The notes under the pieces were generated by a model. It made no database searches, had not been told where the DNA came from, and saw nothing but the letters and a program-made list of their open reading frames with translations. Below are positions 55,614 to 63,917 of a stretch of 64,000 nt of DNA, piece by piece; the stretch's first letter is position 1; every line of letters begins with the position of its first letter. Source of the DNA: Paraspadella gotoi. Taxonomy: Eukaryota > Animalia > Chaetognatha. Position numbers and translations under genes: made by a program. Where the stretch lies: assembly GCA_051294375.1 (NCBI GenBank), contig CM119267.1, positions 4,633,885-4,697,884 on the forward strand, read 5' to 3'.

Positions 55614-57845
55614 ATGTCTCACGGAGGGACCGAACTAGAGCCTTACTTCGTCAAGGCGCTAAAATTGCTTCAGTCGCGGACCAAGGAGTCCACGAACCAA
55701 TTGAAGGCAATGTTGGATGACGTAATCGCTCAACGGAAGGGACTCAAGCCCAGGTTTATCAACGGTTGTTTGTTCTTTTATGTAGCAGCGAATGTTCACT
55801 CTATATCTTTTTTCTCTTCAGCAAAGAAAAGTCGAGTTCGGTCGAGTCCGGGACGCGAGACAAGAGCGACGCCGAGCGCAAGTCGCGCCGAGACTCTGAA
55901 TCCGGCGGCGACAATCCCGTCGTCATCTCGTCGTCGTCGTCGTCCTCCTGCTCTTCGTCCTCTTCGTCTAAATCGTCGACGGCGAAAAATTCGGATCATC
56001 GGAAGTCGGAAGCCGGCGAGAAGCGATCCGCCAAATTCGACGATGCGCTCGTCGATTTCGCCAAAAAGCCAAAGCTGTGCGGTGAGAGAAGGCGGAAGGG
56101 TTGGAGTATTCTATAAATATATTAAATATAATACTAAATCAATCTTTTATCATTTTTTCCCCTCTCCTCTCTCCAGATTCCGATCACGGCTCCTCCAAGT
56201 CCGATTCGTCCGAAGATCCCCAAGGACTTAAGACGAAAAAGAAGAAACACAAATCGGACCATCATCATCATCACCATCATCATCACCACGCGAACCACAA
56301 GAAAAAGTCGAAGAAGAACAAGCATCATCGAAAGGACGGCGGGAAGGAGAAATCCGACGAGGAGAGAAGCGAGCGTCTTTCCTCCGTCGAACTCCCACCC
56401 TCCGTCGAGGTCAACGAGGTGAGTGAAGGGAACCCAGTTTCCTTTTCAAGGTAAGTCAATTTCAATCTTGATCGAGAGAGTTCGGTGTCGACAGGTCGAA
56501 GAAAAGTTTATCAGCGGAGAAGATAGCGACGGCGATGGATCCACTTACAATAGCGAAAGCGAAGGAACTGGAGGAGGTGAGTAAATATCTTCTTTTTTTT
56601 TTTCCCACCCGGAAACTTTCTTTCTTCCTCGAGAGAGACTATCCCTAAGCGCCTTATTTGTGATTCCATCGCCAGGTTTAAGCGCGAGCGGCGGAAGCAG
56701 CGGTGTGGCCGACATCGACGCTTTCGCCGATTCGCTGGGAGTATCCTGCGTCACGTGCAAATCCTTCGACGTACAAACTGGCAATCAGTTGGTCGAGTGC
56801 CAGGATTGCCGCAGTCTCTACCATCAAGAGTGTCATCGGTCAGTCGTCGTTTTTTCTGTTGATAAGTATTAGATGAATAACAATATTTTTCTTTACGTAT
56901 TTTTTTTAATTAGACCCAAAATTAGCGACGACGATGTGAACGATCCTCGACACGTTTGGTACTGCAGTCGATGCAAGAAAAACATGAAAAAGATGGTCAG
57001 GATTTTATAAATATGTTTTTACATACTTTTTTTTACATACTTAAGACTTAAAACAATTTTCGTTCCGCGATCGACTCCAGGCCAACGAACCGCGACCTCT
57101 CGTCCCCATTTCCCCAAAGACGACGACGTCAACGACGCCGACGACAAATTCGAACAACGAGAAGTCGACGTCAGCCCCTTCCCCCGGTGCCAACGCGCCC
57201 CCGAGACTCACCTTCACTTTCACATCTACCCCCTCTGGTGAATTTTGGTTCGGTGTTTTCGCTTCCAAGTTTTACCTCGCTTTTCCACCATTTCTATCTC
57301 GCTTTTTAGGGAGTATGACGATGACCCCGTCTGCCCACCACGTGACCACCGGCGTCGCTGGAGATCACGCCTCTTCTTCGACGACCATCAGCTCCGATGC
57401 ACCTCTCAAGTCGCCCGCCAAGACCCGTGGCGCCGCCAGTGTGGAGAGTAAGTGGCGCCACCAGGCGGCGCCCACGAGCGCGACCTCTACGGCGCTTAGC
57501 GGATTGGCCAGTCTCGCCGCCAATCTGAACAAGGGCGGCGCCACTGTCGCGACGGCGTCCTCATCCTCCGCCGCGACTTCCTCGACGCCGTCCAACATCT
57601 GGGGAGCCTTTTCCTCCTCCTCCTCCTCCTCTTCCTCTTCGACTAATGCTTCGAACGGTGGGACTTCCGCCGCCAACGCCGCCACGGTCGCCACCTCCGC
57701 CTCCCAATCGGGCACGACTTCGCAGGCTTCGGGCTTGGCGGGTCTCGCCGCCAACCACGCCGCCAATCGCCGGTTGCAGGACATGAAGAAACGCGCCGCT
57801 GCCAAGACTCAGCCGCAATCCAAGAAAAACGAGGGGCGGAAGTGA
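55614..57845 (+). CDS. INTS12: Integrator complex subunit 12 (PHD finger)
   Basis: N-terminus ELEPYFVKALKLLQSRTKESTNQLKAMLDD, PHD finger CVTC...[21 protein letters not shown]...DPRHVWYCSRC, and C-terminus RRLQDMKKRAAAK. Confidence 0.9.
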
Positions 57846-58274: not shown

Positions 58275-61200
58275 ATGGCCGATGACGCCGGACTCAAGCA
58301 GATGATCAACAATTTACGCAGCACCGAACTTCAGTTGTTGTTAGGTGCGTAAATTCGTCTGTTAATCGGAATAGTTCTCCTTTACGACTTTTCTTAGATT
58401 AGCGAAAAAAAAAAAAGAAAAACATTTTGTTTACTTTTTAAATGCCATTATTCTTGATTATCATCGCAACTCGCAAAATCGTAATCCATTCTCCGCCATA
58501 AGAATTCGCCGGAAAACGCAAAACGGGGTCCAAGTCGGACCTTTTGCAAAGAGCGCTCGTCCTTTCGAGAAACTCCACCGCCGAAGTGAAACAAAAAGTG
58601 GTAGAGCTCTTCAAGTCGCGAGTCCGAAGTCGAGAATCCCCCAAGACGTAAGACCGCCACTTTCGAGGGACTTGATACATATTGTTCCCTTTTCTCCATC
58701 GTTTCGTTTTCCCTCCCGGTTCTGCGTTTTCCTCCACGGAACGTCAGCGTTTCTTCGTCCAAGGAGAATCCCCAAACTTCGGCCGGTAACTTGGCTCCAC
58801 GCCCAAGCACCACGAATATGGATAACATGGGTAAAAGTCGCACTCTCTCTCTCGGGTTTTTTTTCTTTTTCTCTCCAAATTATTTCTCCGTCTTTCCTTC
58901 AGCGAGATTTCTCTCCTCTCTTCTTTGAAGGTTACGGATCGAGAATGTCCTCTTCCTCCCGTTCGTCGTCTTCGTCGCGATCGTCGCGACCGGATTCGTC
59001 GTACGCTTCGTCCCGGGCCGCCGCGTCGTCGTCGTCGTCGCGGCAGACTTATATCAATCCCGCGGCGCCCCATTCCAATTCCTACGTCGTCGATCCGAAG
59101 CACTACGACTCGCTCAAGGCCGGACTGTTAAGGTGGACAGTTGTGTTCTCTTTTGCCTTTTGGGGGCTCCTTTTCTGTCAATTAATTAATTAATATTTTA
59201 GAAATTTTAATTTAATTTTTAATTTCATGAAATCATTCGTATGTGAATTCAGTACAATAAACAATCCTCACCCGAGCGTCAAGATGCGACGCCTTCCTTT
59301 CTACGATCACCTGGGGGAACTTCTTAAACCCACGCCGCTGCTCGCGAAAGGCCAGACGAGAATTCAGGACGACAAGGGAGTAAAGAAGCAGATCTCCGAG
59401 ACATACTTCATCTTCAACTTGACCACCCAACAAGCTCAAGTGAAAAAAAGAGAAAAAAAAATAACGATTATTAAACTATGGTTATTACATTTTTTTTTAT
59501 CGTTTCCAGGAAATTGCTATGTCTCGTGATCTGCGACCCGCGGCCAAGATGGAATACACCGTCCAAGTACAAATGCGATTTTGTCTGGCCGACAGTTCGC
59601 AGGAGCAGGACGACAACTTTCCCAACTCCATCGCCGTCAGAGTCAACGGCAAAATGGCTCCTCTTCCGGTAAAGATAAAAGGGACAGCTTTTAGAGAATG
59701 AATTTTTTTTTTTTGCTTCACCGAAGCTCATGGTTCCGATTTATTTATGTCGAGATTTGCTGGACTCTCATCGTTCTACTCTAGATAATTCTATAAATTG
59801 ATCGCTTTTATTTTCCCCACTATTTTTTCCCTAGAACCCGATTCCCAGTAATCGACCCGGAGTGGAACCGAAGAGACCCTCTCGCCCCGTTAGCATCACT
59901 CCATTGGTTCGACTCTCGCCGACGGTGCCCAACCGGATCGACGTCAGCTGGGTATGTCTTTCTCATTCTACTTTTTAACTCGCGGGACAGATAACCACGT
60001 TGGGTCTCCGTCAGGCCGCCGAATCGGGAAAGACGCACTGCATCAAGGTGGACTTGGTGAAGCGCGTTACCTCCGAGACTCTCATGGAACGACTGAGAGC
60101 CAAAGGCGCCAGTCATCCTGACCACACCCGCACCATGATCCAGAAGAAGATGTCGAGTGACAACGACAACGATATCGCCCTCGACACCCTCAAAGTATCG
60201 ATTCAGGTTAGAGGGTTTCTCTCTATTTTTTACTCAATAATTCCAAATCGGACCGTCTATGTAGTATATTGGTAAAAATTGTCTTCTGTCCGGTGATTTT
60301 TCTACTGCATACCGCGCTTATTTCATCTTTTTTTTCCCTCGTTCCCCCTTTTCCTCTTTTTTCAGTGCCCTCTCTCAAGAGTGCGCATCCAAATACCCTG
60401 TCGGCCCACGACCTGCTCCCACGTTCAGTGCTTCGACGCGATGATCTTCCTCCAGATGAACGAGAGAAAAGCGACGTGGGTCTGTCCCGTCTGCGACAAA
60501 TCCGCCCATTTCGACGTTCTCGCCATAGACGGGTCGGTTATTTGAAGGGGGGGGAGGCGGCCAAAAACAAAACACTAACTTTACCTTCATTTCCCCTCCT
60601 CCCTCTTCTTCTTTTCCAAAGGTATTTCGCCGAGGTAGTGAATTCAGCGGCTCTTGACGTAACCGACATTTGTTTATCCGAAGACGGGAGTTGGGAGCCC
60701 GTGAAGATGGGATCGAAGAAAGACAGCCACAAGTATGACTCGGTCGTGGGTTCACCCCCATGAAATATTGACTTTTCTGATAATCTCGTTCATGGATCAC
60801 TCTTGTGTATCAGGAACAACGACTCAAACGCGGTCGCCAAGCCAAGTTCTAGTCGGTCGTCTCCCGTCGTTACATCGACCTCGAGCGCGGCGACGACTAA
60901 CGGCGGGTCCCATCTTACAAACGGAGCCGAACCGGGTAAAGAGAACTCAAATGGACCCGAATTGTGTTGCCTCGTCTGGATTTAATTTCTCTTTTTTCTC
61001 TCTCTAATTAGCGGCCGGAACCAAGCGAAAAGTCGTCGCCGTCGATTTGACTCTCTCGGACTCTGACGACGACGACGACAATTCCGCTTCGAGACCGCCT
61101 CCCGCCAAACGGCCCGCCCACTCCGGCAGCCAGTCGTCCGTGGGTCATTCCGCCGCCCACTCTATCAACCACCCTATCTCTCACTCCAGCAGCCACGCCG

Positions 61201-61881
61201 CCTCCCACAGCTCATCGACGCGGCTTGCAACGGGAACTTCCTCGCAAGACCGACTCGTGAGCGCCTCGGCAGCGTCGGCGATGCCAATCATGTCCTCCGC
61301 GCAGCAGCACCAGCAGATGCACGGGGTACCTTATCCGGTTTCCGGTCCCACGCCAGTCGCCCTCACGGCCAACCAAACTGTGCAGCATTACATACCAGGT
61401 TAATGGCCTCAATAGCGAGATATAACTTTTTTTAATTTTATCTTAAATTTATTTTTCTCTTTACAAAGGTATGCCCATCGGGTACCCTTATGGATCTCCC
61501 TCGGGACCGTCCGTCGCGATATCGACCAGCGCCTCCAACATGCCAGGCTCTGGTTTTCCCATAAATTACGGGATTCCATCTCAAAATCCCAACTGCCTAG
61601 ACTTATCGTCATACCCTGCCAACGTGCTTGATTATTTGAGCAGTCATCCGTGAGTTTAGGGGGGGTGGGGGAAATCGTAGGTCGTGGTACTTGACTAACA
61701 TAGTTATAGTTTATAGCAAACCAATGATGAAGGTGAATGACTAATGTATGATCGTCGTTCTCGCCCCAATCCATTCGGTTTCAGTCGCAGCGGAAAATCG
61801 GCGGCGGATTTGGCGTCGCAGCGAAGTCGCGGCTCCGGCGCGCCGAACGCGGCGCCGCCGGACGTCGTCACCCTGGATTGA
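58275..61881 (+). CDS. PIAS: PIAS-family SUMO E3 ligase (SAP, PINIT, SP-RING, SIMs)
   Basis: [77 protein letters not shown]...[26 protein letters not shown] and the family C-terminus PDVVTLD-TGA (61879-61881). Confidence 0.95.
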
Positions 61882-62516
61882 CTAGACAGACGCGCAAGCG
61901 GCGGCTCGACTGGTTCTCGGGAGCAGACGCCGGCTCTCCCCGGCGGCGTTTATGACGGAAAGGCGATCTCGACGACGACCACCACTTCGACAACGATGGC
62001 CACCTTGACGGTTAATTCCACTACCACTACGACGTTTACTTCGACGACGACGACGACACCCACTACGATGACCACGAAAGAAACTACCTCGGTGCCCCAA
62101 ACAACTACGACAACCACCTCTTCCATCTCCTCATCGACTACAACGAAAATGGCAAAAACGAAAACCTCTAAAAAAGTCAAGTCGAGCAAAAGAATCGCCA
62201 AACCGACTGAAACTAAAAACGCCACTCAAAAGCGAGATCGACGGAGAGGAACGGTAGAACCCAAACCCTCTGCTTCTCCACCAGCCAGTCACGCCGGGTA
62301 AGAGAAATTTAGCTTGGAAGATGAGATTCGTCCGATTTTTTTAACGCTGTCATTTCGATCGAATTTTCAAGGGCTGCATCAGGGTCTCTGTCGAACCCAA
62401 GACGACAGAGGCAATCGTCCCTGGTGGCCCAATCAAAAATCAAAACCTTGCTACGCGACGACCCGGTAATCGACGATGACAGCGAGGACGACGACGACGA
62501 CGACCCAAAAATGTGA
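61882..62516 (+). CDS. Putative stop-codon-readthrough extension of PIAS (segments 61882-62297 and 62372-62516)
   Basis: The stop context is TGA-CTAG. The frame stays open to a GT donor at 62298, and the GT-AG intron 62298-62371 preserves frame into an exon ending DDPVIDDDSEDDDDDDPKM*. Confidence 0.6.
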
Positions 62517-63388
62517 AGACGGCTTATTGACCAATCTGTGTTATTGTTAGGCATAAAACTCCACTAGTCCATGAATTGGAACTATCGATCCTTATGTCGC
62601 GGACTGCTTGTATCATTTAAAAACATTGCCTAATAAATTGGATGAATTTTCTTCGTTTTGTCTCGTTCTTTTCTTGTTTCCCCCCTCTGCCGCCCCCTCC
62701 CCCTTCTTTATCCATCTCTTCTCCCACTCTCCCCACTCATCGTTTGCTCCGTAGAGTTGAGTTCCCAGTCTCGATATCCGCTCGTTGCCGAGAGTTTGTT
62801 TCGCGAGCGTTCCCATTCGTTTCCTTTTGGTGCTGCGATTTGTGGAAAGCGATCAAAAGAAGTTACTAGTTACTTTTTTTTTTAGTAACAACTATTTGTC
62901 GAACAGATGGTGACAGCAACGTATACCACTAAAACCTTCGTTTTAGCTAATAATGGTGGAGCGGGGAGAACCCACCCCTCCGGCCCTCGGTTTCGTAATT
63001 AACGACGTTGACAGTATACTTCCCGTTATTATTTTTGGGTTTCATCCACTCGCTTATTATTATTATCATTGATTTAACTATCATTTTGTTTTTAAGCAAG
63101 TTACGTGTATCTAGAAAAAAAAAACACTTTAGTTTCGATTTACTATGCGTTTTTCTTTTAAAATATGTTTGTCCAGAAGAGGGCTTCTGGGATTCCGTTT
63201 AGCAGTTATGAAGTGAAATCCCTGGATTTTGAATCACTGATTGTTAAAGTGCCATCTGGAATATCATCTTTCTCGCTCTAATTGCTTTTCAGATGTAACG
63301 GAACTTCTCGCAGCCATGAATTTTTCATGACTAAAAGTCATTAAGAAAAAAAGGAAAAACATGAAACTTTAAGTTACAACAATGAACC

Positions 63389-63917
63389 ATGGCAACTCGA
63401 ACAATGTTCCTCGTTTTAATTGTTTGCCATGTTTTTCTAGTCGACTCATTCAGTGCCTCTCCGTCTCGTTCGACCAACGGTGACATATCGCGGAAAATAA
63501 AAAAGCCTAAGGTAAGGACTTATCAGTTCTCGAGAGAGGAGATGTATTTCACTTACTAATTCGGATGGATGGGTTTTGCGACCGATCCCCCCTAAGTTGA
63601 CCATTCAGTCGAGTTCCTCTTCCCCTTATTTTTTCCTTCAGATTTACGACAACTTCCGCACTTGCGTTGAGACTTCGAAATGCGAAAAGCTGTCGCCAGC
63701 AAAATGTTTCGGATCTCCGCTCAAGTACACCCACACGGCAGTCGGCAAATTTGTGCCGACAAGCGAGGCCGAATGGGGCGCCGCCTCGCAGGACGAGGCC
63801 CACGAAAAGCTCAAGAAATGGGCCAAGCATTTGAAACCCTTTCCCGCTTGCTGGAAGAAAGTGCAGCCTTTCCTCTGCGCCATGTATCTACCTCCTTGCG
63901 TCAACGATACTGTGCAG
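63389..63917 (+). CDS. SMO: Smoothened, first two coding exons (signal peptide and CRD); continues beyond the window
   Basis: Exon 63389-63511 encodes MATRTMFLVLIVCHVFLVDSFSA. Exon 63642-63917 encodes CEKLSPAKCFGSPLKYTHT...SQDEAHEKLKKW...CWKKVQPFLCAMYLPPCVND, matching the Smoothened cysteine-rich domain. Confidence 0.88.

Follow-up and report, generated by a model that had tools for sequence, protein, structure and literature searches.

A candidate readthrough extension behind the UGA-CUAG stop of PIAS in the arrow worm Paraspadella gotoi

A 64,000-nucleotide stretch of the Paraspadella gotoi genome (the window) contains a gene for the SUMO E3 ligase PIAS, in whose mRNA the UGA stop codon is followed directly by CUAG, as in the UGA-CUAG readthrough class. 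From its sequence features, we propose with a probability of roughly 0.72 that low-level programmed readthrough at this site yields a 926-aa PIAS beside the main 739-aa form. An initial annotation of the window had suggested such an isoform with a spliced extension, and the suggestion is supported by the transcript, by the open reading frame and by conservation at the far end of the extension, whose translation is putative. No description of PIAS readthrough was found in the literature covered, which comprised open-access papers.

The PIAS coding region occupies positions 58275-61881 of the forward strand and encodes 739 aa, with DVVTLD as the C-terminal residues before the stop. Twelve of the 13 introns in the coding sequence were placed by RNA joints, while the first (58345-58502) was inferred from the frame. 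The zf-MIZ (SP-RING) domain was recovered with an E-value of 3.7e-20 (71.9 bits against a cut-off of 33.5) and PINIT with an E-value of 9e-5, its pieces falling below the cut-off when single exons were scored. A search with one PIAS exon gave two matches (P0001 and P0002) among 27 candidates at 78-80% identity, and the clusters of these two added a further two PIAS homologues (P0003 and P0004). Homologues of the exon carry PF14324 and PF02891, and the gene is PIAS. All four homologues (P0001-P0004) end in DVVTLD, which we take to be a SIM. A search of PDB sequences with the C-terminal end of PIAS returned no match. The last coding intron (61650-61784) has two branch-like TGACTAA sites, at about 61693 and 61739, and contains phase-2 AGs at 61703 and 61709, of weak score, whose use would truncate PIAS upstream of DVVTLD; no joint at either AG is among those listed for the RNA contigs.

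The stop itself, TGA at 61879-61881, and the adjoining CTAG at 61882-61885 form the candidate readthrough site (61879-61885, forward strand), and this context, as originally noted from the genome, is unchanged in a spliced RNA contig. TGACTAG is not rare as such, with three matches in the window against 3.6 expected; its weight lies in one copy being the PIAS stop. A chance occurrence of UGA-CUAG at that position is unlikely, because the window has few CTAG sites (0.0012 per position). Scans for DNA of relatives were empty: in metagenome contigs an alignment gave 395 pattern matches, of which none was confirmed, and a degenerate motif pattern recovered nothing, and genome contigs and viral contigs were equally without a match.

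Other ways of passing or removing the stop were considered and rejected. A-to-I editing finds no A>G change at 61881 in the contigs, in which rare variants are absent. Reassignment of TGA is unlikely, given that homologues stop at the identical residue and that the TGA of the upstream gene is followed by AT-rich sequence (GC falling from 0.65 to 0.35). A selenoprotein is not indicated either, as no Rfam SECIS element was detected in 61700-63400 at E-values up to 10; one crude match to the SECIS core does not fold.

RNA evidence was drawn from four runs (X1-X4), all as assembled contigs, in which rare forms are dropped and RNA starts are not visible. The RNA status of the runs is a guess, although GT..AG joints show spliced RNA, and X1, X3 and X4 belong to a single study. 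In X1, a contig of 1701 nt and depth 372 joins 61649 to 61785 and, at GT..AG, 62296 to 62371, and reaches 63293; over 61785-62296 it has no differing letter. It follows from this contig that the PIAS stop is not a sequencing error, that the intron is used and that the RNA goes past it. The GT-AG intron within the extension (62298-62371, forward strand, 74 nt) removes an in-frame TAA, and the exon junction that it leaves lies 416 nt 3' of the PIAS stop. The unaltered stop lies on one and the same contig between a joint of PIAS coding exons and, further 3', the joint that had been predicted for PIAS transcripts. Polyadenylation before about 62300, named at the outset as an observation that would speak against the extension, does not apply to this RNA. 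The sole AATAAA in 61500-63400, a candidate poly(A) signal at 62632-62637 (forward strand), lies upstream of the contig's end. X2 has low-depth pieces of upstream exons only and does not bear on the extension.

The neighbourhood of the gene may be described briefly. Beyond the second stop, the X1 contig continues for 777 nt and stops next to splice acceptor 63292 of the gene that comes next on the same strand; a long UTR or polycistronic transcription might be behind this. That next gene has an Fz domain (E-value 2.8e-6; window positions 63642-63911) and is presumably Smoothened-like. The upstream gene on the same strand, at about 56000-57845, encodes a Cys/His-rich finger and a Ser/Ala-rich end and stops about 430 nt before the PIAS ATG; we assume it to be INTS12-like, and a single exon of it gave no Pfam match.

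Once spliced, the frame behind the PIAS stop holds 186 sense codons (187 with the recoded stop) and ends at TGA 62514-62516, in agreement with the length of about 187 aa first estimated for it. Unspliced, it would hold 139 sense codons before TAA 62299; ahead of the GT at 62298 stand 138 whole codons and a split Gly codon. When the extension was shuffled 20,000 times with its dinucleotides preserved, only 95 versions were free of stops in frame, and the five other frames contain 3-12 stops each. In GC content the extension (0.54) resembles the PIAS coding sequence (0.57) more than the stretch after the second stop (0.40). Synonymous codon usage gives no preference for the extension frame, whose log-likelihood ratio is -0.3, with -12.2 and +18.7 for the two alternative frames.

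The first part of the extension (61882-62297, forward strand; 138 codons plus 2 nt) consists of 38 GC-rich codons, a Thr/Ser tract and a basic patch, and the whole extension has 44 Thr, 26 Ser and 28 Lys/Arg among its 186 residues. The 38 codons between the stop and the first in-frame ATG (61882-61995) are 65% GC and would be open by chance with P of about 0.38. That ATG (61996-61998, forward strand; extension codon 39) has A at -3 and G at +4 and would be the start of a rival open reading frame. At the other end, an acidic tail precedes the second stop, TGA (62451-62516, forward strand), and acidic ends also occur in three related proteins (P0005-P0007). The proposal that this tail resembles a SIM was not supported: a strict SIM pattern is absent from the extension, P0005 and P0006. 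Neither part of the extension matched a Pfam family.

The conserved portion of the extension, which the initial annotation had not singled out, is a peptide motif, AASGSLSNPRRQRQSSLVAQSKI, with an RxRxxS site, encoded at 62373-62450 (forward strand). The 47-residue peptide of the last exon had a single match, P0005 (E-value 5.9e-4), among 1.84 billion representative proteins, and a profile search gave three matches (P0005 together with P0006 and P0007) among 2,556 candidates. Common to these three proteins is AASGSLS-NPRRQRQSSLVAQ(S/T)KI followed by the acidic end; they differ at a single site of the motif, where either one or three residues are inserted in frame. RQRQSS, the RxRxxS site, is present in all four peptides compared, and we take it to be a motif of the basophilic-kinase/14-3-3 type. 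P0005 and P0006 are 79% identical and retain a frame of 131-132 codons despite several in-frame indels. In both, a Thr tract is followed by a basic patch, the order seen in the extension, and residues 38-45 of this patch read KKRGRPAK, an AT-hook-like sequence that the P. gotoi extension lacks. The NLS-like basic segment of the initial annotation thus recurs in relatives by composition, but not by alignment, BLASTP giving none between the first 138 extension codons and P0005.

For P0001 (PIAS) as for P0005 (tail), the source is a single JGI contig with a length of 3688 nt, and we infer that the two are one and the same contig. The first 14 residues of P0007 are unrelated to the others and end exactly at the splice-site position; an intron at the equal position read as protein would fit them. 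The ESM Atlas offered no usable match for P0005, and an AlphaFold model from a 4-row alignment was uninformative (pLDDT 55, pTM 0.11). The tail is present in databases as an unnamed separate open reading frame, and under the readthrough reading the annotation of the gene and of its relatives would be missing an isoform.

DNA of two further organisms matches the far end. In X3 (organism C), a single contig of 3055 nt aligns with exons for PINIT and SP-RING at about 81% and, at 65 of 71 bases, with 62372-62442; a contig of X4 (organism D) matches 62370-62450 at 69 of 81 bases. Neither run aligns at 80% around the PIAS stop. The distance from the SP-RING piece to the motif is 1293 nt in X3 and 1326 nt here, both multiples of three, an agreement in phase that taken alone has one chance in three. 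Base changes are visible where they lie away from the ends of the matching pieces, which is so for two of six in X3 and three of 12 in X4, three of them distinct. Each of the three leaves the amino acid unchanged in the extension frame and alters it in both alternative frames; of random changes, a fraction of about 0.28 would be expected to be synonymous. The loose ends of the two contigs, read by eye in frame, continue as in P0005-P0007: X3 has S-H-A ahead of the motif, and both X3 and X4 have L-Y-D-D behind it. Frame-breaking indels in relatives had been named as a possible refutation; at the far end, where this was tested, both frame and peptide are kept. The sequence comparison therefore indicates far-end conservation of protein type, its protein-coding evolutionary signature being found at 62373-62450 and not at 61882-62297.

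Contigs of depth 38-203 in X1, over 60500-62299, represent another PIAS-like transcript that differs by about 10%. At the stop this copy reads TGA-CTA-T (UGA-CUA-U), with T instead of G, and Tyr replaces the final Asp. The extension carries four indels in this copy (-6, net -42, -12 and -6), each divisible by three, which weighs little in triplet repeats. Nine changed extension codons, from an incomplete list that pools three contigs, comprise eight non-synonymous changes and one nonsense change. The latter, CGA>TGA at 62233, belongs to one of two haplotypes within the extension, occurring in the contig of depth 111 and not in that of depth 38. The copy does not cover the last extension exon and gives no sign of constraint on the first part. 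Within PIAS exons it has non-triplet indels, and an intron near 60553-60668 is partly retained. It is a duplicate gene, a pseudogene or a second species, and may be a decaying duplicate, as the non-triplet indels in PIAS exons suggest.

RNA structure at the stop was also analysed. The proposed GCCGG/CCGGC hairpin after the stop exists, with 6 bp, but is not above chance: 199 of 200 shuffles of 61879-61990 gave a better fold than the sequence itself (z +1.79). In a search for long-range pairing at the stop, the best downstream duplex (-43 kcal/mol) was weaker than upstream controls (-54 kcal/mol). Structure-stimulated readthrough was rejected on these two results. The lowest fold z-score along the PIAS mRNA (-5.19, from 25 shuffles) lies at spliced 59393-59542, across a PINIT exon junction, and is probably due to chance.

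The tail could instead belong to a separate small gene of 148 aa starting at ATG 61996, translated from an mRNA of its own, from one trans-spliced to a leader within an operon in which it follows PIAS, or through reinitiation. We consider this unlikely. The ATG does lie in a good Kozak context, P0005 and P0006 are both called from a Met within the Thr tract, and a fused longer protein of PIAS and tail was not among the 7,997 candidates scored in a weak search. Arrow worms are also described, in the accessible portions of two studies (PMC2481426; PMC12460157), as having leader trans-splicing and operon gaps down to 3 bases; the main texts of both leave readthrough unmentioned. A separate gene would nevertheless account neither for the UGA-CUAG context nor for the open frame linking PIAS to the tail or the equal phase in X3. 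Moreover, no AATAAA lies near the PIAS stop and the acceptors in the GC-rich 61882-61995 are weak, while the RNA depth stays at 510 throughout 61898-61985, where none of the listed joints or loose ends falls, and contigs of both X1 and X3 run unbroken across the gap after the stop. A Met within a Thr tract would, for its part, easily arise by an ACG-to-ATG change. Still less probable, in our estimation, is a minor splice form in which donor 61649 is joined to the AG at 61888-61889 (or 61897-61898), skipping the stop together with DVVTLD and encoding the tail without recoding. Both AGs are in the correct phase, and that at 61888-61889 (forward strand, phase 2), though weak, scores -3.2, within the range of 14 real acceptors (-3.7 to 9.3); amphioxus PIAS is reported, in the accessible part of the source, to change its C-termini by splicing (PMC5719053). 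Against such a form stand a poor pyrimidine tract, the failure of the same weak search to find a fused protein, and the main X1 contig, which is unbranched and, with rare forms dropped from contigs, has no stop-skipping joint among those listed.

Finally, the region might be untranslated, with 62371-62430 acting as a conserved 3' UTR stem-loop beside an NMD-triggering intron and the peptide conservation arising as a by-product; of this we are very doubtful. The stem-loop (forward strand), which overlaps the conserved motif, is strong (-31.3 kcal/mol, z -4.10) and ranks second among the 174 mRNA windows compared. The invariant residues match its stem almost exactly and the insertions of relatives sit at the edge of its loop, while the first part of the extension in the diverged X1 copy is without protein-type constraint. 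Yet two of the three visible X3 and X4 changes fall on paired stem bases (62408 and 62403, opposite 62388 and 62393, which lie outside the listed changes and could themselves change synonymously) and are nonetheless synonymous; conservation continues beyond the stem as K-I-R-x-L-Y-D-D in five relatives; and the frame of P0005 and P0006 is held across their indels. The codons of the peptide alone yield a comparable hairpin, 132 of 2000 synonymous recodings folding as well. A search of Rfam gave six weak matches, none near the gathering score.

Readthrough at UGA-CUAG has been described for the vertebrate genes AQP4, MAPK10, OPRK1, OPRL1 and MDH1 (Loughran et al., 2014; PMC4132726). As far as the accessible part of that paper shows, PIAS resembles these cases in its UGA-CUAG, in the conservation of stop position and in-frame extension and in needing no RNA structure near the stop. 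It differs in the length of the extension, which comprises tens of residues there (13 in MAPK10) and 186, split by an intron, in PIAS, and in that its conserved part lies 140 codons from the stop; readthrough was measured in the vertebrate genes, whereas for PIAS it is predicted from sequence. PIAS is absent from the main text of that paper. Drosophila readthrough genes, in the available portion of a 2026 study (PMC13278127), share with PIAS a UGA-C stop, a GC-rich longer extension, a disorder-prone composition and a regulatory gene class, although their motifs, unlike that of PIAS, are mostly not CUAG. Neither the name nor the CG and FlyBase identifiers of the fly PIAS gene turned up in the 2,851-row candidate table of that partly accessible source, in which some rows are nameless.

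Two other systems bear comparison, again as described in the accessible parts of the sources. The amphioxus PIAS gene produces bPIASv1 and bPIASv2, whose C-termini are switched by splicing (PMC5719053). There, as here, one PIAS gene has two C-termini, one with an S/T-rich tail; splicing chooses the C-terminus in amphioxus, whereas in P. gotoi one mRNA would yield both, with the tail behind the normal end. In human reporters, an mRNA whose exon junction lies over 55 nt past the stop can be stabilized by low readthrough (Baker and Hogg, 2017; PMC5360307). The PIAS exon junction likewise lies more than 55 nt behind its stop, albeit in a different animal. Overall, we are most likely dealing with a known mechanism on a new gene, unusual in its length, in its internal intron and in having a conserved module distant from the stop.

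In the proposed mechanism, most ribosomes would terminate at 61879 and release the 739-aa PIAS. In a few percent, a near-cognate tRNA would decode UGA, as CUAG would weaken termination, an effect known in mammals. In human cells CUAG is required, UGA-CUA by itself supporting 1.5% readthrough according to the accessible text of Loughran and colleagues (PMC4132726). To the 739-aa form this would add a disordered linker with Thr/Ser and basic stretches, the short conserved RxRxxS module and the acidic end. Our best guess is that the module might give the long PIAS a partner, a location or a phospho-switch absent from the short form. By analogy with the human reporters, ribosomes passing the stop would also remove the exon-junction complex at the junction 416 nt further on, shielding the mRNA from NMD, and such a coupling of readthrough to NMD is plausible.

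PIAS ligases are central in SUMO signalling, and the gene described here would offer a test case of whether UGA-CUAG readthrough is used beyond vertebrates and insects, as well as of whether readthrough can keep a natural mRNA safe from junction-dependent decay. More tentatively, and with considerable doubt, we put forward that the extension is a lineage-wide, cryptic, intron-split PIAS module reached by readthrough alone, which would add a phospho-regulated docking motif and clear an NMD mark; the stem-loop directly 3' of the intron may have a part in this. If this were true, readthrough would set both the form and the amount of PIAS.
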